A stretch of 64,000 nucleotides of DNA from an uncultured Chloroflexia bacterium. GTDB taxonomy: Bacteria > Chloroflexota > Limnocylindria > QHBO01. Location: contig CAWHAZ010000005.1 of the NCBI GenBank assembly GCA_963827475.1, positions 1 to 64,000 of the forward strand, in the 5' to 3' direction. A program made the position numbers and the translations under genes. Below the pieces are notes generated by a model. That model did no database searches. It was given only the letters and a program-made list of their open reading frames with translations, and was not told the DNA's origin. Positions 7,311-15,897 of this stretch are shown piece after piece (position 1 is the first letter of the stretch; each line of letters opens with the position of its first letter).

Positions 7311-8048
7311 CTACCGGCGGCGCACGACTCCCAGGTTAGCCACGGCTACCGACCCGAGGGTCCCGATCAGGAGGAGTCCGAAGCCGATCGCCGCGAGCGG
7401 GCTGCCGGTGGGCGGCGGCGCGGTTGCTGCGTTCGGCAGGCTCGAGGTTCCCGGAGTCGGCGGGTTGGGTAGGTCGTAGGTGATGGTCAGGACCGGTCCT
7501 AGCTCCTCAATAAACCCATCACCACAAACAAATGAGTCAAACGTCGTGACCGACTCGGGATCGGGTCGGATCGAGAATCCCGCCGAACCTGCGCTGATCG
7601 TGGCGGCTGTTACCAGGCTCGTCACGTCGTAGTCCGCAAGTGCACCGTTTGTAATCGGTGTGAAGAGGATTGGCGTGCCTGTGACCTGGATGTCCGGCTC
7701 CGTGATCGAGCCATCGCCCGCGTAGCCGTACATCGCGTGCTGAATGAAGGTGAACTGTGTGGACGCGTGGAGAGTGAGGGTCGCGCTGAGGACCGTGGCC
7801 TCCGGTGGGAGGTCGGTCAAGGGAAATTCGAGCGCGGAGCGGTATCGGTCAGTGTCGAAGTACGCACCGCTCGGGCAGCCAGATACTCCTTCGGTCCAGG
7901 GTCCCCCAAATAGCGAGTCAAATCCCTTGCCGATCCCGCCGTCGGCGTTCGCGATCGCGAGGCTGCCGCCCCCCGCCGACACCGGCGCCGCGGTGACGGC
8001 CATCAGCAGGCCGAGGATGATCAGGATCAGGGCGACGCGGGCGCGCAT
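7311..8048 (-). CDS. Secreted DNRLRE/CBM96-like protein with LPNAA-TM-RRR tail
   Basis: Signal MRARVALILIILGLLMAVTAAPVSA; RSALEFPLTDLPPEATVLSATLTL; PVLTITY; tail SLPNAATAP..AVANLGVVRRR. Confidence 0.75.
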   Translation of the reverse strand: MRARVALILIILGLLMAVTAAPVSAGGGSLAIANADGGIGKGFDSLFGGPWTEGVSGCPSGAYFDTDRYRSALEFPLTDLPPEATVLSATLTLHASTQFTFIQHAMYGYAGDGSITEPDIQVTGTPILFTPITNGALADYDVTSLVTAATISAGSAGFSIRPDPESVTTFDSFVCGDGFIEELGPVLTITYDLPNPPTPGTSSLPNAATAPPPTGSPLAAIGFGLLLIGTLGSVAVANLGVVRRR

Positions 8049-8074
8049 GGCGGTTCCTCGAGGGGGCAGTCCGA

Positions 8075-8115
8075 CCGATGGAGCCTCGGGCCGGGGCCGG
8101 GGCAGTGTACGGCCC
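8075..8115 (-). promoter_or_regulatory. Repeated upstream element copy 3
   Basis: Plus strand ccgatggagcctcgggccggggccggggcagtgtacggccc, upstream of the ATG at 8048. Confidence 0.7.
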
Positions 8116-8147
8116 GCGTGGCGGCGAACGAAGCCCGGGGCGATGGG

Positions 8148-10088
8148 TCAGGCGGCGTTGCGCATGGACGGGATGAGCCAGCCGATCAGCCCGGCGGCGA
8201 CCGCCACCGCCCCACCCAGCATCAGGGTCCGGTCCGCCCCGATGATCCCGGCCAGGATGCCGGACACGGCCATGGCGGTGGCCATCACCCCGAACACCAG
8301 GGCCTGGCGCGACGTCACCACCCGCGCGAACAGGGCCTGCGGCGTCCGCTCCTGGAACAGGGTGATGTTCGGGATGACGAACGCCATGTTCGTCGCGCCG
8401 ATGAGGAAGAACAGGGCGATCGCGAGCACCGGATCGGTCACCAGGCCGACGACGATGAAGGTCACGCCCATGCCGATGAAGCCCGCGATCGCCATCGGTC
8501 CCTTCTTGGCGTCTCCGGCGAACCCACCGATGACGAGGCCGCCGACGATGCTGCCCAGCCCGATCGACGCCATAAGCAGCGAGTAATTCTCCGGAAAGCC
8601 GATGACCGACTGTGTCGAGCACCGACTGCGCGTAGAGGAGCGAGCAGGTGACCTCGGTCCCGACCGCGACCTGGGCCATGGTTGACACGAGCGTGTTCGC
8701 CCGCAGCTCCGCCTGGTGGACGAGGAACGAGATGCCCTCCCGCACGTCGCGCCACAGCTGACCGATGCCGAACGCGCCGGCGGCGCGTTCGTGGCGGGGC
8801 ACCTGCATGAGGACCAGGAACAGGGCGGAGATGAGGTACGTCCCGGAGTCGATCACGAACGCCGTGCCGATGATCCCGGCCAGGGCGGCGACCATCAGCC
8901 CGGCCAGGGGGTAGCCGATGAGGTCGGCCAGGGTCTCGGTCACGCTGGTCGCGCTGTTGGCGGGGAGGAGGTCCTCGCGGTCCACGATCTGGGGCACGAG
9001 CGCGTCCTTCGAGGGGCGGAACAGGAGCGACACGGTCGCCACCGCGAAGGCGACGAGGTAGACGAGCAGGATGTTCACGTTGAACGCGAGCGGGATGGTC
9101 AGCACCAGCGCGGCGCGGATGAGGTCCGCGGCGATCATCGTCCGGCGCCGGTCCCAGCGGTCCGCCAGGGCGCCGGCCCACGGGCCGAAGATCACGTTCG
9201 GGACGGCGATGGCGGCCATCGTGAAGCCCACGTCCAGCGGCGTGCCGCGGGTCGCGACCAGGAAGCCGAGGGCCACCTGGTGGATCCGGTCGCCCATCAG
9301 GCTGACCAGCTGGCCGCACCACAGCAGGGCGTAGTTGCGGTTGCCGGCGAGGCGGAGGTACGGCGACTGCGGCTCTCCTCCTCCTCGACCGCGACCCCGA
9401 TCCCCGGACCGGGCAGGACCGGCACCGGCTCGGCGGCGAGCGGCATGGCGGTGGCATAGGCGACGCCCAGCTGGAACTCGCCGGCGGGCATCGGTCGTGG
9501 CGGATTGGCGCCCAGCGCCACCGACATCCGGGTCGGCACCGACGGGCGGGTCATGGCCGCCGCGATGGCCCACACGATCCCGACCCACAGCAGGACGTCG
9601 CCGATGCTGATGACGTCGCGCAGGACCGGGATGGGGATGGGCACCACGTCGCCGAACATCCCGCCCTGCCGGACGAACTCCGCGGTCGAGTCCGCGGTCA
9701 GGACGATGTGGAACGGGTCGCCGGCGATGTCGGCCAGGGACAGCCCGGCGGCGAACAGGGCGCCCTCGAAGACCGGCATCTTGCCCTGGTGGAGGATGAC
9801 CGCGATCGTGTTCAGGGTGACCCCGATGGCCGCCACCTGGAGCCCGGGCACCTTCCAGTTGCGGTACAGCCAGATCACGATCAGGACGTAGGTCACCGGC
9901 AGGCCCCAGGCCGCCGCCACGTCCGCCCCACCGGAATCGGTGGTGATCGCCAGCCCGGCCGCCAGGCGCACGGCGAGGGCGATGCCCAGCAGCCAGATCC
10001 ATTTCAGGCGGAGGTCCGCCAGGCGGGGGAGCTGCCCTCCGGCCAGGGCCCCGAGGACGAGGCCGACCAGGATGGCGCTAAGGAGCAT
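8148..10088 (-). CDS. DUF5317-family membrane domain fused to an MFS exporter (DHA3/EntS-like); frameshifts about 9375 and 8610
   Basis: N-term GGQLPRLADLRLKW..LN..GKMPV..H..GDVVPIP..VISIGDVLL (DUF5317); then NRNYALLWCGQLVSLMGD, GALADRWDRRRTMIAAD (MFS motif A), FQERTP..ARV; no separate start codon before MFS TM1. Confidence 0.75.
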
Positions 10089-10089
10089 C

Positions 10090-11499
10090 TTCCGAGGCGA
10101 GTGCTGGCCTCGAGGTCGGGCTCCCTTCGTCGGTGCCGGTGGCGACGGTCACGCTCGGACCGGTCGGCGGCGGCCACCAGGTCGTCCTGGTGGAGCATGG
10201 TCGGCAGCTCGTCGGGCCGCTCCGGCGGGCGATCCAGGATGTCGCGGCTCAGCCCGACCAGGACCGGCACGATCTCCGGGTCGAACTGGAGGCCGGAGTA
10301 CTTCTCGAGCTCGGCAATGGCCTGCTCGTGGGTCAGCGCGGTGAGCCGATACGGGCGGGAGCTGGTCATCGCCTCGTAGGCGTCGGCCACGGTCAGGATC
10401 CGGGCGCCGAGCGGGATGTCGTGCGTACTCCAGCGCCGTCCGGGTAGCCGCTGCCGTTGATCCACTCGTGGTGGGCCCGGATGAGCGGCGCCTCCGGCGC
10501 GAGCTGGTTGGCGGGCGCCACGATCTCCGCCCCGATGGTCGGGTGCTGGTTCATGAGGATCCGCTCCTCGCGGTTCAGCGGCCCCGGCTTGAGCAGGATG
10601 TTGTCGCGGATCCCGATCTTGCCCACGTCATGCAGTAACCCCGCCCACTTGATCTTCTCGACCTCCGACTCGGGCAGGCTCATGACCCGGCACATCGCCT
10701 CCGAGATGTGGCTCACCCGGTTCGAATGACCGCGGGTGTACCGATCCCGGGCGTCCACCGCGTTGGCCAGGGCCCCGATCGTCTGCTCGAACAGCTCGCG
10801 GGTCTCGACGTAGCGGTGATAAGCCATGCGAGTCGTGAACAGCGGGATCGCGAACAGCGCGGTCGCCCACCAGCCGACTCCGTTCGGCAGCAGGAATACC
10901 TGCGCCATCAGCCACCCCACAGGCGCCAGGCCGAGGAGGTTCGGAGCAATCGCGCCGATATCTCGCGCAAAGACTGTTCGAACCGAAGCTCCGGTCCTGA
11001 GCGACACAGCAACAACCGCGAGCGACGCACTGATGAGGGAGTAGACGAGCCCAGCGATGAGTGAGTCCCGCGAACTGGACGAGCGACGACTGCAACGGTG
11101 GCAAGCCGGACGCCAAGTCGGCGATCAGCTCGAAGGGGATGCCGGCCACGACGGCGGCTATGACCAGGGCGCGTGGTTGAAGAGCGTCCCGTACCACGGG
11201 ACTTCCCCGCTCAATTCCCTGGAGTCCGTGGTCCCAATCGCCGCCACTATCCCGCCAGCGGTCGGACCACCAAGCACGATGGAAGCCAAAAGCGGCGCGA
11301 AACTGACCGAGGCCACGGTCCCGGTTGGCAGGCGCACAGGCAGGGCGCTGGCGACCAGCGTCAGGATGGTCCAGTAGGCGATCCCCGCGGGACCGCCGAT
11401 CTCTTCCCGGATGGGGAAGAAAACCGAAACCGCCGCGAGCGCAATCGCTGCGGCGGCTACTGTAAGGCCAACAAGGAGCTGGACTCTCGCGGTCACCAA
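10090..11499 (-). CDS. Membrane-sensor HD-GYP c-di-GMP phosphodiesterase (frameshifts; 3' end approximate)
   Basis: Multi-TM N-terminus (LPVRLP..SVSFAP..LFNHA); AVDARDRYTRGHSNRV, LLHDVGKIG, HPTIGAEI, HHEWINGSGYP, IPLGARILTVADAYEAMTSSRPYR, QFDPEIV. Confidence 0.9.
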
Positions 11500-11548
11500 G
11501 CTCCAACCCTAGCCTTGCGAGTCAGATTGCGTCAACCGCGACGCCAGG

Positions 11549-11647
11549 CTACCAACCTTTGACGGAAGCTCCTCCGGCGAGCGCCAAAAGAACTAAGGCC
11601 ACGACTGGCAGCAGGCGGACGAAGATGCGATGTCTCACTGTGTCCAT
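11549..11647 (-). CDS. 32-aa signal-peptide-like precursor MDTVRHRIFVRLLPVVALVLLALAGGASVKGW (putative peptide pheromone)
   Basis: Hand translation, ATG 11647 to TAG 11549; basic N-region, hydrophobic core, polar C-terminal ASVKGW; directly upstream of the HD-GYP gene on the same strand. Confidence 0.8.
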   Translation of the reverse strand: MDTVRHRIFVRLLPVVALVLLALAGGASVKGW

Positions 11648-11662
11648 CGCGGTCTCTTCGTC

Positions 11663-11689
11663 TTACCAGCCCTTAATTGAGGCTTTCAC
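11663..11689 (-). CDS. 8-aa mini-ORF MKASIKGW
   Basis: GTG AAA GCC TCA ATT AAG GGC TGG TAA with GAGGG 8 nt upstream; C-terminus matches the neighbouring precursor (ASVKGW) but uses different codons. Confidence 0.5.
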   Translation of the reverse strand: MKASIKGW

Positions 11690-11734
11690 AGAAGGTGCCC
11701 TCTTCTGACGAGGAACCGACCTATCCGGTCTGGA

Positions 11735-11808
11735 TGGTCGGTTGCACTACTTGCTCCCCACGCGCCTAAGTGCCCAACGTTCAGCGCGTGGATCTTTGCT
11801 TCCGGATC
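11735..11808 (-). ncRNA. Cyclic di-GMP-II riboswitch aptamer
   Basis: Minus strand GGAAGCAAAGATCCACGCGCTGAACGTTGGGCACTTAGGCGCGTGGGGAGCAAGTAGTGCAACCGACC: 5' GGAA, stem CCACGCGC/GCGCGTGG, loop TTGGGCACTT, pseudoknot GCAC/GTGC, 3' AGTAGTGCAACCGACC, as in the known class II aptamer; lies upstream of an HD-GYP gene. Confidence 0.88.
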
Positions 11809-11809
11809 G

Positions 11810-14800
11810 TTATCGACCAGTACGAAAGTACTGGCGTTGTGGTGGGACCCTAGCGCCCAGTGGCGGGCAAGTCAAGTCTTTTCGCCAAGAAGTCAACAAC
11901 GAATGGACCGACGCATGGGCATTTCCGCCGAGCTCGGAGAGAGCACTATGGACCTCCTGTGACGCGGGCACCTGCAATTCCTCTTCGACTGCCGTCGCGA
12001 ACTCGCTGATGAGTCGTCGTGCCGCAGCCCGACGACCCATCTCGTGCAGTTTTCTAGCCATCGCCACATGAGCGGATTCGTCGAACGGGTCGAACTCGGT
12101 CAGCACCTCCGCGGCCCGGAGCGAGACATGCGCCGGGATGTCCGGAGTGCTTGCGACTGCGATTTCTAGGAGGGGCTCCCGGACCTCAGCGGCCACCGAC
12201 ATCTGTATCCCTGCTGCCCAGTCCTCATACCGAAGGTCAGCGAGAAACTCGCCGCGTATGAGGGAAAGCATGGCGATAGCTGCCCGGCGTCGCTCCTGGG
12301 CACTTGTGGCACCTTGGAGCAGAGCTGAGAGGCGTCGGACTTCGTCGAGATCGCTGACGACCAACTCCGGGTCGAACGCGAGAGATTCGCCGCTGCTCAC
12401 AACGTACTGTGGTCTGTCCGGATCCTTTGAGCCGGAATTGAGATGCCGGCGAAGCTGAAAGACGGCCTGATTCAGGTTGTTTACGCCACCCGCTGGATCG
12501 TGGTCTGGCCAGAGAATCTCCATAGCCATCTCTCGAGTGAGCGTCCGATGTCGATTCGCGACTAGCAGGCCCAACAGCAGTCGGAGCCGCTTCTTGTCGA
12601 TGGTGATCTCAGGTCCGTCCCAGTCGCCACGATGGACGCTGAGCGGCCCGAAGGCTCTCACGTAGAGCCGAGCAGCGGTGCTCCTCAGGATCTCCCTGCG
12701 GACTTGCGCGACGTCTTCGCCGGCGCACTCACGAAGTAGTCCGGCCGTCTCGGCGTTCCCACGTGACCGCACCAATGCGAGAGCTTCCGCCCGCTCGGAT
12801 CCGTCAAGAGTGGGAAGAATCTCGACTAGTACCGGCATCCAAAAGGTCAGGTCCCCAGCCGCGATTCGGAGGAGTTGGGCTACATGGCCGCTCGTAGCCA
12901 AATGCTCTGCAAAGGGCGCGAAGCGTCGAAGCCACCAACGGAGATACGGTATAGCCCCGAATCGCTCCGCGCCCGCCAGAGCTCGCGAAGCGTGCACGCC
13001 GGCGTTCGCGGAATCGTGCTCTATCAGAAGCGGAGTGAGTTGTACGAGGCCGCAAGCCGCCATAAAGCGCGCACCACGCTCCTCCCAAGATTTCAGTTGC
13101 TCAAGCGCTGTCGCACACTCGCCGGTGCATGAGTTTCGCGCGTGAGCTGCGAGGGCCAGGGCAGCGGATGTGCTCGCGGACAATCGCGGGTCTGGGTCGA
13201 GCCGGCGCAATTTGACGCTCGCCAAATCTAGGTCATCCTGGCTCGCTCCTCCGAGGTAGTAGGCGCAGATGAGCAGCGCGAGAGAAGGCTCCTCAAGGCC
13301 GCCGAGGATTTCCCGCTTGGAGAGGATCCGTCGCAGCAGGCGAGTCGCCTCGCTGAATTCCCCTCGCTGGAGCAGTACGCAAGCAAGGCCAAACTCCGCC
13401 TCGGCATGTGGTCGCGGCCACCTCCTTGTCCTGACGATTCCCTGTTGAGCGACTACTTCGGCTCGCCCCACATCCGCCACCGCAAGGAGGGTCTCCACGA
13501 AATCAGCGTTGTCTCCGAAAGGACTGCTTGGGATGGCACGCCAAAACCTGTCTGCCTCCTCGAAGTTCGCAAGGCTCTCAGTCAGCCGGCCGAGCCACCG
13601 CTGAACCAAGCCGAGGTTGTGATGACCGATTGCGGCGTAGTGCATGAGACCGCGCGACCTTGCTTCGTGCACAAGCTCTTCGCAGTCCCGCTCGGTCCGC
13701 TCCATTGACTCGAGCCAGGTCTCAGTGATCGCGAGGTTTCCTCGGAGTCGCAGCCTGGTCTCAAAGTCGTCAGGCCCGGCGAGGGTCAAGCCTCGCCGGG
13801 CAGCCTGGACGCTCTCGACGGCCTGGCCGCGGTAATTGAAGTGCGTACTCAACTTTAGTTCCGCCAGCGCGGCCATCCTGCGATCACCCTTTCTCTCGAA
13901 GAAGATCCGTCCCTTCTCGAGAGCTTCACGGGCAGAGTCCCACTCTCCACGTATGGTGCCGAGTGACTCACCGTGCAGCAGCGATAGGCGCGCGTTGTCT
14001 TTGATCGTCTTTGTTGGCAGCTGGCTAAGCCATTCGTCTATAAGACCAAGTCGGCCCTCGCCCACGACGGATTCCCCGTATTTGGCTATGAGCCGCGCTG
14101 CTTGGCGCTGAAGGCCCGCACGGAGGTAATGGTGGATGGCCTCCGGCCATTGGAGCGTCGTCTCGTAGTAGGAGGCTGCGTGAATATGGAGGCCGATAAC
14201 CTCGGGGTCCGACCGTTCCGCTGCGAGGCGCCGCTCCAAGAAATCCCGGAACAACCCGTGGTAGCGATACATTTTCTCGTCCACGTCCAGACGGTTCGTG
14301 AAGAGGCCTCGCTGCTCGAGATCAGCCAATAGGAGCGAACCGTCCCGCACTCCACTTAGTCGTTCGGCAAGTTCCGCCGTGATCTGCTGGAGGATTGATG
14401 TACACAGCAAGAAATTCCTTGTTTCATCGCTCTGCTGGTCGAGGACTTCTTCTGCCAAGAAGGCAAACAGGTCGTTGTCGGTCGCCGCGGTAATCGACTC
14501 GATGAATGAGCTGCGTTCCGCTGGGCGGCTCTTGTCTCGCAACGAGACCTCGACGAGCTGAAGGCTGGCAGCCCACCCTTCTGTTCGGCGGTCGAGCTCA
14601 ATCAGCTCGCCCGGATCAAGAGGGTCGGAATAGACATCGCGGAAGAGAGCGTCAATTTCAGGTTCCCTAAAGCGCAGGGCATCAGTCCGCAGCTCGCCGT
14701 AGCCACCGTGTGTGCGAAAGCGAGCGAACTGGAGTCGGGGCCTTGCACGTGACAGGAAGACGAACCGGCAGGTTGGAGGCGCGTCGCGCAAGATCTGATT

Positions 14801-15265
14801 CCAGAGCCCGCGGACTTCGGTCTGGCTCGTTACGAAATGCCAGTCATCGATGATGAATGTGCACGGCTCAGTGAGCCGCTCGTGCATCTCAGCTAGTAGA
14901 AATGCGGCCACTCCAGGGCGGCTCGATCCCGGGCCGCCAAGTTGGCGGAGCATGCTGTGCGCCTGATGTCCGAATCCAGGGTGGCGTTGGGCAATCGCTT
15001 CGATGAGGTAACTGATGTGGAGTGACCAGTCACGGTCATTGCGGTCGAGCTTGTACCAGTAGCACGGGAATTCCACCTCGCGCTCCCACTGCCAAAGCAG
15101 CGTGGTCTTTCCATAACCGGCATCTGCCGCGACGACTATGGCCCGGCAGTCGGCGTGGTCATTCAGCCAGTCGATAAGGCGCGCACGACGAAGCGTGGGG
15201 GTCACATAGTGGGGCGACGTGACCTTGTTGTGGATGAGGGGATAGGCGGTATTGATCTCGCCCAA
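11810..15265 (-). CDS. MalT-like STAND NTPase - TPR - winged HTH/BTAD (SARP-type) transcriptional regulator, about 1150 aa
   Basis: GGAGGG RBS and TTG at 15265; RRARLIDWL, Walker A ADAGYGKTTLL, Walker B FIIDDWH, TEGWAASL, YRYHGLFRDFL, helical repeats, AFGPL..LWPD..LRRHL, GEFLAD..DPFDESAH. Confidence 0.88.
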   Translation of the reverse strand: MGEINTAYPLIHNKVTSPHYVTPTLRRARLIDWLNDHADCRAIVVAADAGYGKTTLLWQWEREVEFPCYWYKLDRNDRDWSLHISYLIEAIAQRHPGFGHQAHSMLRQLGGPGSSRPGVAAFLLAEMHERLTEPCTFIIDDWHFVTSQTEVRGLWNQILRDAPPTCRFVFLSRARPRLQFARFRTHGGYGELRTDALRFREPEIDALFRDVYSDPLDPGELIELDRRTEGWAASLQLVEVSLRDKSRPAERSSFIESITAATDNDLFAFLAEEVLDQQSDETRNFLLCTSILQQITAELAERLSGVRDGSLLLADLEQRGLFTNRLDVDEKMYRYHGLFRDFLERRLAAERSDPEVIGLHIHAASYYETTLQWPEAIHHYLRAGLQRQAARLIAKYGESVVGEGRLGLIDEWLSQLPTKTIKDNARLSLLHGESLGTIRGEWDSAREALEKGRIFFERKGDRRMAALAELKLSTHFNYRGQAVESVQAARRGLTLAGPDDFETRLRLRGNLAITETWLESMERTERDCEELVHEARSRGLMHYAAIGHHNLGLVQRWLGRLTESLANFEEADRFWRAIPSSPFGDNADFVETLLAVADVGRAEVVAQQGIVRTRRWPRPHAEAEFGLACVLLQRGEFSEATRLLRRILSKREILGGLEEPSLALLICAYYLGGASQDDLDLASVKLRRLDPDPRLSASTSAALALAAHARNSCTGECATALEQLKSWEERGARFMAACGLVQLTPLLIEHDSANAGVHASRALAGAERFGAIPYLRWWLRRFAPFAEHLATSGHVAQLLRIAAGDLTFWMPVLVEILPTLDGSERAEALALVRSRGNAETAGLLRECAGEDVAQVRREILRSTAARLYVRAFGPLSVHRGDWDGPEITIDKKRLRLLLGLLVANRHRTLTREMAMEILWPDHDPAGGVNNLNQAVFQLRRHLNSGSKDPDRPQYVVSSGESLAFDPELVVSDLDEVRRLSALLQGATSAQERRRAAIAMLSLIRGEFLADLRYEDWAAGIQMSVAAEVREPLLEIAVASTPDIPAHVSLRAAEVLTEFDPFDESAHVAMARKLHEMGRRAAARRLISEFATAVEEELQVPASQEVHSALSELGGNAHASVHSLLTSWRKDLTCPPLGARVPPQRQYFRTGR
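11847..11875 (-). promoter_or_regulatory. Sigma70-type promoter for the riboswitch/peptide/HD-GYP operon
   Basis: TTGACT (11875-11870), 17-nt spacer, TAGGGT (11852-11847), about 40 nt upstream of the aptamer. Confidence 0.65.
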
Positions 15266-15365
15266 CGAATGACCCTCCGATGGCGGGCACTTTACGGGCG
15301 TGCGCTCCGCCAGATGGCAGCATACGGCCGTTCGACTTACCAGCCAATTAGTTGAGGCGGAACTC

Positions 15366-15897
15366 GTGAGGGCGTGGATCGGGCTGGGCGGCAATCTCGA
15401 AGGGTCGCGAGCGGCGCTCGTATCGGCCCTGGACTCGCTCGCCGATTTCGGCACGATCGGACCGATCTCGAGCTTGTACCGATCCGCCCCGCGAGAGCGG
15501 ACCGATCAGCCTGATTTCCTCAACGCCGCGGTGGTCGCTGGAGACCGAGCTCGAGCCGCGACCGCTGCTGGTCGAGCTGAAGGCGATCGAGCGGCGACTC
15601 GGCCGCGACCCGTTTGGCCATCGGTATGGGCCGCGCCTGGTGGACCTGGACCTGCTGGCGATCGAGGGGCGCTGCGTGGACGACGAGCCGGACCTGGTGG
15701 TGCCGCACCCGAAGCTGGCCGAGCGGCGGTTCGCGCTGGAGCCGCTGGCCGAGCTGGATCCGAACCTGAAGCCGTGGGCGGAGTGCCCCGGTGACCGGCG
15801 CGAGCTGACCGTGGCGGAGGCGCTGGCGGCGGTGATGGATCAGGAGGTCGAGGTGATCGAGGGACCGGGCTGGGCGGGGATCACCGAGCCCCAGTAG
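15366..15897 (+). CDS. folK: 2-amino-4-hydroxy-6-hydroxymethyldihydropteridine diphosphokinase (frameshift about 15540)
   Basis: AWIGLGGNL, SSLYRSAP..QPDFLNAA, GPRLVDLDLL, LVVPHPKLAERRFALEPL. Confidence 0.9.

Follow-up and report, generated by a model that had tools for sequence, protein, structure and literature searches.

A conserved eight- to nine-codon open reading frame between a c-di-GMP-II riboswitch and a predicted peptide gene in Ca. Limnocylindria, and its possible role as an intracellular twin of an exported tail

Introduction

In mok-hok coupling and in the erm and cat leaders, a very short open reading frame (ORF) located just upstream of the main cistron, which encodes a small hydrophobic peptide or resistance to a drug, alters access to the next start; none of these short ORFs is known to resemble the C-terminus of the downstream product or to lie behind a riboswitch. 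In the RRNPP systems (Rap-Phr, PlcR-PapR, and Rgg-SHP), the gene for a cytoplasmic regulator with tetratricopeptide repeats (TPR) is followed by a small gene that encodes an export signal and a short active C-terminus. The enterococcal peptides cCF10 and iCF10 are both exported and then re-imported. The two are short and similar to each other, and a single binding domain of the cytoplasmic regulator PrgX is either contested or shared by them (PMC5552905). Recognition of micro-genes controlled by riboswitches is only beginning, with an example from C. difficile published in October 2026 (PMC13724677): the CD1980.2 family comprises small membrane-associated proteins of 58 amino acids (aa) that are encoded behind class I riboswitches for c-di-GMP (cyclic diguanosine monophosphate) and are repressed by c-di-GMP. 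In that published account, the family is multicopy and linked to sporulation, no leader mini-ORF is described, and no homologues are reported outside C. difficile (PMC13724677). Here, an ORF of eight codons (hereafter the mini-ORF) is examined that lies between a class II c-di-GMP (c-di-GMP-II) riboswitch and a 32-codon ORF (hereafter the precursor) in a stretch of 64,000 nucleotides (nt) from an uncultured Chloroflexia bacterium (GenBank assembly GCA_963827475.1, contig CAWHAZ010000005.1, positions 1 to 64,000; hereafter the window).

The source lineage belongs to uncultured soil Ca. Limnocylindria. In the literature on c-di-GMP-II leader peptides, on c-di-GMP-II in Chloroflexi, and on c-di-GMP in Limnocylindria, no such pair of ORFs was found described. 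The pair sits in a conserved cassette, the order of which is a STAND/TPR/SARP regulator, the riboswitch, the mini-ORF, the signal-peptide-like peptide encoded by the precursor, a MASE9-HD-GYP phosphodiesterase, a DUF5317-MFS protein, and a sigma54 regulator.

The mini-ORF and the precursor tail

The two ORFs are as follows.

11663..11689, minus strand: mini-ORF, GTG AAA GCC TCA ATT AAG GGC TGG TAA, encoding VKASIKGW in 8 codons followed by TAA
11549..11647, minus strand: precursor, a 32-codon ORF encoding MDTVRHRIFVRLLPVVALVLLALAGGASVKGW followed by a stop, with a basic N-terminus, an uncharged core, an A-x-A motif, and an 8-residue tail, GGASVKGW

A first-pass annotation of the window, made by a model from the sequence alone, had pointed to this GTG-initiated ORF, with a GAGGG ribosome-binding site of its own, 15 nt before the precursor ATG, and its coordinates and sequence agree with those obtained here. 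The GAGGG (11702..11698, minus strand) lies 9 nt before the GTG/ATG start of the mini-ORF, and the 15-nt gap between the TAA and the precursor ATG spans 11662..11648 (minus strand). With a Shine-Dalgarno-like GAGGG, an in-frame stop, and a position between a regulatory RNA and the next cistron, the mini-ORF has the layout of a leader ORF. The hexapeptide ends of the two products match at 5 of 6 residues, the precursor ending ASVKGW and the mini-ORF having Ile where the precursor has Val, and the third base differs in every codon common to both tails with the exception of TGG; this comparison had been drawn correctly in the annotation. Such tails are rare in the genome. Within its 1,924,502 bases, read in six frames, only two frames end in KGW before a stop, and only two hexapeptides preceding a stop match ASVKGW at 5 or more of 6 positions; in both cases the two are the mini-ORF and the precursor.

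Among the outcomes that would refute its reading, the annotation had listed a deletion artefact of a longer tandem precursor. Illumina-based contigs from 4 public runs were aligned to the region as an artefact check, and these independent contigs support the GTG form and show no such deletion. None of the close contigs carries an extra base at 11688 (depths of 4.18, 4.49, and 7.26 in runs X1, X2, and X4), indicating that the GTG start is not an assembly slip and is real for this lineage; a base that makes ATG at this position was seen in a single contig of run X6 that is roughly 92% alike. At 11677, all covering contigs have the base that specifies Val rather than Ile, and environmental relatives thus carry xKASVKGW, which is identical to the precursor tail. 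Taken with the conservation and codon evidence presented below, the mini-ORF is very probably a real and conserved ORF that is under selection at the level of its peptide.

Conservation across Ca. Limnocylindria and beyond

BLAST searches detected the leader in 17 of 41 related genomes, the window's own included. Among the 19 regions extracted, 2 were cut by contig ends, 1 (L005) was riddled with insertions and deletions (indels), and 16, including one (L013) from the unpublished genome G021, had a mini-ORF followed by a small hydrophobic ORF; the mini-ORF is intact in 16 of the 17 assessable regions. An exact 21-base pattern, which included the ATG, recovered 65 loci in species-representative genomes. 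Parsing of 80 genome loci with the upstream hairpin motif yielded 68 with both ORFs, corresponding to 58 distinct DNA pairs, and in these 58 the mini-ORF has 8 or 9 codons ending in [KR]-[GS]-[WF]-stop. The remaining 12 loci are indel-ridden, with the mini-ORF frame open in 2 (one sequence, with obvious indels) and the precursor frame broken in 10, most of these in long-read assemblies.

Because the 21-base pattern contained the ATG, the search was run again, on metagenome contigs and without the start codon, using a 17-mer that ends before it; 80 loci were read from more than 120 matches, and all metagenome counts given here and below are among the matches listed. All 47 of the aptamer-linked loci have an ATG and an ORF of 8-9 codons, 44 of which end in [KR][GSA][WF] and three in KPW, KPW, and KGY. 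In comparison, none of 30 chance hits to the 17-mer that lacked an aptamer had such an ORF (3 more lay at contig ends). An in-frame ORF of 8-9 codons thus persists at related loci, which had been proposed as a check in the annotation, and the notion offered there that the mini-ORF is the remnant of a second precursor copy is rejected, insofar as it implies a decaying relic, by its intactness in the BLAST-found regions and the aptamer-linked metagenome loci.

The distribution of the pair is narrower than that of the riboswitch. In a phylum-wide Rfam scan of Chloroflexota, c-di-GMP-II aptamers were found in 43 of 151 genomes. Twenty-five of these riboswitch loci were read, and twin ORFs were present in 5 (class families f1 and f3), with one further f3 locus cut off, and in 0 of 19 loci from other Chloroflexota families, one of which (L101) is from the unpublished genome G177. 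In family f3 (L090 and L100), both ORFs are present although the otherwise invariant upstream hairpin is absent, with VQTESVNKGW paired with a precursor ending in GGASLRVF and MAPEYGLKGF paired with one ending in GGASLKGL. Class genomes hold a further 12, weaker copies of the riboswitch; these lie ahead of ordinary genes, and twin ORFs accompany only 1 of them. Absence of the pair behind nearly all of the other c-di-GMP-II riboswitches read indicates that the mini-ORF belongs to the cassette and not to the riboswitch as such.

Evidence for selection on the encoded peptides

Among 55 distinct mini-ORFs, 13 have 8 codons and 42 have 9, and length shifts by whole codons only. The consensus of the encoded peptide is M-[AST]-[RK]-[EQ]-x-[VILT]-K-G-W. 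Position 3 is Arg in 36 of the 42 nine-codon mini-ORFs and is encoded by AGA (16), CGA (16), or CGC (3). Likewise, Ala2 is encoded by GCA, GCT, or GCC and Glu4 by GAG (13) or GAA (10), while position -4 (counted from the stop) is V, I, L, or T with a varying third base. The protein-level selection proposed in the annotation on the basis of the window alone is therefore borne out over the 58 distinct loci by synonymous exchange between AGA and CGA for Arg, wobble at Ala and Glu codons, and the in-frame alternation of 8 and 9 codons.

Mini-ORFs end in TAG (32), TAA (22), or TGA (1) and precursors in TAG (44), TAA (9), or TGA (2), versus 646 TGA, 278 TAG, and 33 TAA among the 957 probable genes of the window's genome. 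TGA is the leakiest stop and the one preferred in this genome, and its avoidance in both ORFs fits a need for an exact C-terminus.

Relation of the two tails

A tail consisting of a hydrophobic residue, [KR], G, and [W] is common to both products across the class. The mini-ORF ends in KGW in 45 of 58 genome loci, and the precursor ends in KGW in 23 and in RGW in 16. The twin tails described in the annotation are present in the window and are not universal, with full agreement over the last five residues at 11 of the 58 genome loci and at 12 of 45 loci from metagenomes (matches listed). None of these 23 loci (the metagenome part being among the matches listed) has the same 15 nt in both ORFs; 1-4 bases differ, and all of the differences are synonymous except where Ser is drawn from two codon families (TCA versus AGC in L015). 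This argues against recent gene conversion.

Residues that are rare in precursors tend to be found in the mini-ORF of the same locus, namely N at -5 (2/2), A at -4 (1/1), S at -2 (1/1), P at -2 (1/1), and I at -4 (2/3). The matched rare tails are NLKPW, SAKGW, NLKGW, and SIKGW, along with KSW paired with KSW, where Ser is encoded by AGC in one ORF and by TCC or TCT in the other. Over 51 distinct tail pairs, 7 such matches were observed versus about 1.2 expected from mini-ORF residue frequencies. On a tree of HD-GYP proteins (43 rows), the identical-tail state occupies 12 rows and requires 4 changes.

A second cassette type occurs in the window's genus (L006-L011 and L019), in which M[SKR]E[LF]TKGW is paired with a precursor ending in AGAGLRGL; genome G010 holds three copies. 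On the HD-GYP tree, this type (xTKGW/GLRGL) is sister to that of the window (SVKGW/SVKGW), a placement that indicates a recent duplication in the window's genus after which both tails diverged.

The second cistron

The precursor was aligned over 42 relatives. Its basic N-terminus is accompanied by an uncharged run of 12-21 residues, and in 53 of 57 distinct precursor sequences the 8-residue tail is preceded by Ala at both -3 and -1. A profile built from the precursor matched 46 clusters among 1.84 billion representative proteins, most of them exactly 32 aa in length. The basic N-terminus, the uncharged run, and the two Ala residues fit a cleavable signal peptide that would release GGASxKGW; it is equally possible that the precursor is a single-pass membrane micro-protein. 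Database proteins of 57-79 aa that contain the precursor (P0002, P0004, P0016, P0033, and others) were set aside as artefacts of gene calling that start inside the aptamer, where GTGCAACC is read as V/M-Q-P-T and the CAGAAG hairpin described below, read in another frame, appears as a conserved QKRAPSD. A read-through fusion of the two ORFs was also rejected: the spacing between them can be divided by three in some loci (15, 9, 21, or 12) and not in most.

In most of the loci L003-L085, the precursor stop is followed at a distance of 8-14 nt by a conserved word, (G)TG-N-TAGACTCC, after which there is often a small hairpin (TCACCC...GGGTGA) and then the GTG start of the HD-GYP gene. In the window's genus (about 11503-11548, minus strand), the word is GGTTGAC or GGTAGAC plus TAGGGT. 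It looks like an extended -10 element or a regulator site for the HD-GYP gene; a promoter scan makes no call there.

The riboswitch and the structure of the leader RNA

The structured elements upstream of and around the two ORFs are as follows.

11729..11812, minus strand: aptamer of a c-di-GMP-II riboswitch (RF01786; 57.3 bits, gathering score 53.5, E 4.8e-11, matched over the full model, positions 1-84)
11714..11743, minus strand: hairpin AACCGACC-ATCC...GGAT-A-GGTCGGTT, present in the minimum free energy (MFE) fold of the window RNA
11689..11707, minus strand: hairpin CAGAAG-AGGGCAC-CTTCTG, which presents the GAGGG and the last G of which is the first base of the GTG
11618..11662, minus strand: predicted hairpin GACGAAGA...UCUUCGUC, which begins right after the mini-ORF TAA and encloses the precursor ATG (11647..11645)

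The c-di-GMP riboswitch named in the annotation is confirmed by the RF01786 match above the gathering score, and a search of the window's genome returned the same match as its sole copy. Across 54 leaders, the P2 helix of the aptamer shows compensatory changes, with double changes at seven predicted pairs that all belong to the aptamer hairpin (columns 44-52 with 69-79). The 5' arm of the hairpin at 11714..11743 is the conserved 3' part of the aptamer (AACCGACC), its stem CCGAC/GTCGG is kept in 53-54 of the 54 leaders, and in relatives such as L003 and L008 it is followed by runs of T. The window's own copy has no such run, and a terminator scan called nothing of the kind behind its aptamer. 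The overlap of the aptamer 3' part with the hairpin stem, together with the T-runs in relatives, suggests that this hairpin is the terminator of an ON switch.

The hairpin that presents the GAGGG is likewise part of the MFE fold. Fourteen of the 16 BLAST-found regions whose mini-ORF is intact carry it unchanged; L004 departs from it in the last base and L013 in the first two, and in L018 its place is taken by CGTGTG-GAGGGCA-CACACG. A further hairpin, GGGCTGG-stop-CCAGCCC, spans the mini-ORF stop in many loci, with a compensatory pair, GAGCTGG/CCAGCTC, in L022; in the family to which the window belongs, the CCAGCCC partner does not occur. For the 313-nt RNA, the energy of the MFE fold is -129.8 kcal/mol (z -3.33). 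An Rfam match to sX7, a Xanthomonas small RNA, over the 3' end of the precursor (11526..11600, minus strand) scored 22.4 bits versus a threshold of 55 and is taken as chance. No sigma70-type promoter was called by a simple scan of 11400..11950; TTGACT-17-TAGGGT (11875..11847) and TTGACG-18-TAGGGT after the precursor, noted by eye, fall below the threshold of that scan and are not claimed.

Several genomes of the class (L115-L126; G028, G133, G096, G049, and G026) hold up to six c-di-GMP-II copies each. Most of these copies directly precede ordinary genes, with a ribosome-binding site right after the aptamer and without the terminator-like hairpin, an arrangement that suggests translational control at those riboswitches.

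Coverage by RNA libraries

Both cistrons are covered by contigs of RNA libraries from two studies. In metatranscriptome run X6, a contig of 311 nt and depth 73 extends over 11503..11809 with zero depth on both flanks; this contig and another of 334 nt (depth 33) cover exactly the stretch from riboswitch to precursor (11503-11810). The loose contig end at 11810 resembles sequencing adapter. A contig of run X4 bridges into the HD-GYP gene. These data are a weak hint of a discrete, abundant RNA of about 310 nt that extends from the 5' end of the aptamer to just before the HD-GYP start; it should be noted that contigs cannot prove transcript ends and that DNA carry-over is possible.

Neighbouring genes

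The genes that flank the riboswitch and the two ORFs are as follows.

11810..15454, minus strand: STAND-type regulator gene (MalT-like NTPase, TPR repeats, and a Trans_reg_C winged helix; Pfam, NCBIfam)
10081..11496, minus strand: MASE9 and HD-GYP c-di-GMP phosphodiesterase gene, interrupted by frame changes in this assembly
7918..10088, minus strand: DUF5317 membrane domain and MFS_3 transporter, split here and one fused gene of ~650 aa in relatives (Pfam)

The STAND regulator with TPR repeats to which the annotation had referred is a real and conserved neighbour. A complete same-strand ORF of at least 1000 aa ends 192-245 nt before the hairpin end in 15 loci, and in three clean relatives that were scanned, Trans_reg_C was detected in 3, BTAD in 2, and TPR families in 2. 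Pfam reports no RRNPP family in the STAND neighbour and instead identifies a MalT-like STAND NTPase with TPR and Trans_reg_C/BTAD. In the window, this ORF encodes 1214 aa versus about 1112-1156 aa in relatives (~90 codons longer).

In relatives, the phosphodiesterase matches HD_5 at 116-122 bits (cut-off 27.2; E 2e-35 to 8.5e-34) in 4 of 5 proteins scanned, and MASE9 is seen in 4 of 5 and is above its cut-off in 3 of 5. In the window, only the last 56 positions of the HD_5 profile are matched owing to frame breaks. When the intact protein of L003 was aligned by tblastn, frame -3 accounted for residues 1-354, with two in-frame stops among them, and for residues 446-471, and frame -2 for residues 359-443; the stops result from compensating shifts near 11160 and 11060, and the frame changes lie near 10430 and 10163. 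The frame breaks in the HD-GYP and DUF5317-MFS genes and the long STAND ORF reflect either indel errors of long reads or a decaying cassette. The conserved last member of the cassette is a sigma54-dependent response regulator (REC, AAA+ activator, and HTH_8 domains; L030, L046, L066, L054, and L077). In L066 it has a weak match to a VpsR domain, and this protein could be a further c-di-GMP-responsive regulator.

A proposed mechanism and its alternatives

The reading that is tentatively favoured here is that the mini-ORF product acts in trans as a cytoplasmic twin of an exported peptide and that the two share a partner encoded in the cassette. The annotation had offered such a cytoplasmic version of the signal alongside a regulatory leader peptide. 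The cytoplasmic version is preferred because of the peptide-level conservation of the mini-ORF, the avoidance of TGA in both ORFs, and the matching of rare tails in the face of unmatched DNA. Bound c-di-GMP would hold the 3' part of the aptamer and so block the terminator-like hairpin, allowing transcription into the two cistrons. The first would yield a cytoplasmic peptide of 8-9 residues and the second a peptide of 32-37 residues with a signal-peptide-like N-terminus, an A-x-A motif, and the tail G-G-A-[SG]-[VFLI]-[KR]-G-W. The mini-peptide would be the intracellular counterpart of the exported tail, and one partner that recognizes the C-terminus, encoded in the same cassette, would read both. 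The best candidate for this partner is the TPR sensor of the STAND/SARP regulator, with MASE9-HD-GYP and DUF5317-MFS as alternatives. MASE9 is thought to bind a ligand within the membrane (bioRxiv 10.1101/2021.11.05.467447), and on that basis the uncleaved peptide has a candidate partner in the neighbouring enzyme. Rising c-di-GMP could thus be fed back onto c-di-GMP breakdown, and a ribosome crossing the mini-ORF probably also helps to open the start region of the second cistron. A fuller version, which is rather unlikely as a whole, would have c-di-GMP gate one signal in a private form, a leaderless cytoplasmic peptide of eight or nine residues, and a public form, an exported octapeptide, with the STAND/SARP TPR domain reading both, switching on the HD-GYP gene, and coupling c-di-GMP levels among neighbours; in this version, the tails would have diverged into a second specificity after duplication.

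Several observations weigh against a trans-acting twin. With both cistrons on the same RNA, it is not clear what advantage an inside copy would bring, and the cassette yielded neither a peptide importer nor an oligopeptide permease. At most loci the two tails are not the same, nor are they in the sister paralog (xTKGW versus GLRGL), and some precursor states never occur in the mini-ORF, namely Q/S/N at -3 (0/5), L/A at -2 (0/5), and L at -1 (0/5). Phylogenetically independent pair tests are underpowered, with none reaching a p of 0.05, and a shuffle test of tail matching (0 of 5000) is inflated by relatedness and is not used as a probability. At the level of DNA, AAG GGC TGG is nearly fixed in the mini-ORF (GGC in 49 of 50 Gly codons) when compared to the precursor (GGC 27, GGT 16, GGG 5), and this, together with the hairpin at the stop, indicates a constraint on the RNA that is superimposed on the mini-ORF. 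Finally, its early codons are rare in a genome of 70% GC (AGA 1.6%, GCA 5%), and such A/U-ending first codons could reflect efficiency of initiation rather than a function of the peptide.

A strong contender, somewhat less probable than the trans reading, is that the mini-ORF acts in cis as a leader. A ribosome on the mini-ORF would melt structure that hides the start of the second cistron, the peptide would be inert, and the similar tails would be the legacy of an old duplication and occasional gene conversion. The geometry suits such a role, with the mini-ORF stop located 2-42 nt (mostly 17-25 nt) from the precursor start, a hairpin in the window that begins directly after the TAA and takes in the ATG, a hairpin across the stop in many other loci, and A/U-rich, rare early codons that suit efficient initiation. 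In an accessibility model, the precursor Shine-Dalgarno and AUG are mostly paired and open when a ribosome occupies the mini-ORF stop: the unpaired probability rises from 0.25 in free RNA to 0.64 in the window, and across 58 loci from a median of 0.31 (below 0.5 in 55 of 58) to 0.51, a gain that is partly trivial since the stretch forced open overlaps the stretch measured and there is no control set. Most precursors nevertheless have a good Shine-Dalgarno sequence of their own. For simple coupling, moreover, the peptide would not have to be conserved; Arg, a hydrophobic residue at -4, and K-G-W nevertheless persist through synonymous changes. Gene conversion should sometimes leave identical DNA, which is seen at none of the 23 loci with identical tails (metagenome part among the matches listed).

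A nascent-peptide sensor is an unlikely alternative. Here, xKGW with TAG or TAA would cause a pause at termination, perhaps in response to a small molecule; the halted ribosome would govern expression further along the RNA, and the end of the second cistron would act likewise on the HD-GYP gene. A length of 8-9 codons matches that of known short arrest leaders; conservation is highest over the last three residues, both ORFs all but avoid TGA as their stop, and selection acts on the peptide, as such a sensor would lead one to expect. The ribosome is invariant between these lineages, so that matched, lineage-specific tails (NLKPW, SAKGW, KSW) would not be expected from arrest. Between the precursor stop and the HD-GYP start, moreover, there are roughly 30-100 nt, and this interval contains a promoter-like TGnTAGACT motif.

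Still more improbable is an untranslated RNA or DNA element, either the GGGCTGG/CCAGCCC hairpin or a repeated regulator site (GCTGGTAG), in which the reading frame would be incidental. AAG GGC TGG TA is nearly invariant in mini-ORF DNA, the hairpin has its one compensatory example, and a TGGTAG-like word recurs after the precursor stop. Set against this, no aptamer-linked locus that could be assessed has lost the start, the frame, or the stop (in metagenomes, among the matches listed), length varies by whole codons and the stop among TAA, TAG, and TGA, Arg is drawn from two codon families, W is replaced by F or Y only, and the window's own family lacks the hairpin partner. That the mini-ORF is a tandem precursor copy in decay, or else an artefact of assembly, as several frame breaks in neighbouring genes of the window assembly and the unusual GTG start might hint, can be set aside with little hesitation given the class-wide conservation and the independent Illumina contigs, in which the GTG form is borne out and nothing is deleted with respect to a longer copy. 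An attenuator responding to Trp supply was rejected given the replacement of W by F or Y in mini-ORFs and by L in precursors, as was a ribosomally synthesized and post-translationally modified peptide with Lys-Trp chemistry, for which the conserved cassette holds no maturation enzyme.

Significance and comparison with known systems

If the mini-ORF product is indeed a twin of the exported tail, the locus would represent a new wiring of a second messenger to peptide signalling, and it would give a STAND/TPR/SARP regulator its first peptide ligand and open an initial way to the inputs of MASE9-type HD-GYP proteins. Even if it acts only in cis, it is a clean, class-wide ORF of 8-9 codons under peptide-level selection that gene callers have missed entirely.

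Of the described systems, the RRNPP systems share with this locus a gene for a TPR-containing regulator followed by a small gene that encodes a signal-like N-terminus and a short tail, as predicted here from the encoded residues. Unlike them, the locus encodes a regulator that belongs to the STAND NTPases and ends in a DNA-binding part of the SARP type, and it has an extra, leaderless twin ORF and gating by a riboswitch. The cCF10/iCF10 pair resembles the two products in being similar short peptides, one of which is encoded next to the regulator, insofar as the published work on that pair describes it; binding of the peptides is hypothetical here, and the locus differs in having a leaderless cytoplasmic ORF and a riboswitch. 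Unlike the short ORFs of mok-hok and of the erm and cat leaders, the mini-ORF has a tail that resembles the C-terminus of the downstream product and a riboswitch upstream. With the CD1980.2 family, as far as its published description extends, the pair has in common unannotated tiny ORFs directly after a c-di-GMP riboswitch, control by premature termination (predicted for the pair), small hydrophobic or basic products, and multiple copies. That same description sets the pair apart from the family, given products of 32-37 aa and an aptamer of class II: in Ca. Limnocylindria, the switch is probably ON rather than repressing, and it precedes two cistrons of 8-9 and 32-37 codons that share a C-terminus and are embedded in a STAND/HD-GYP cassette.

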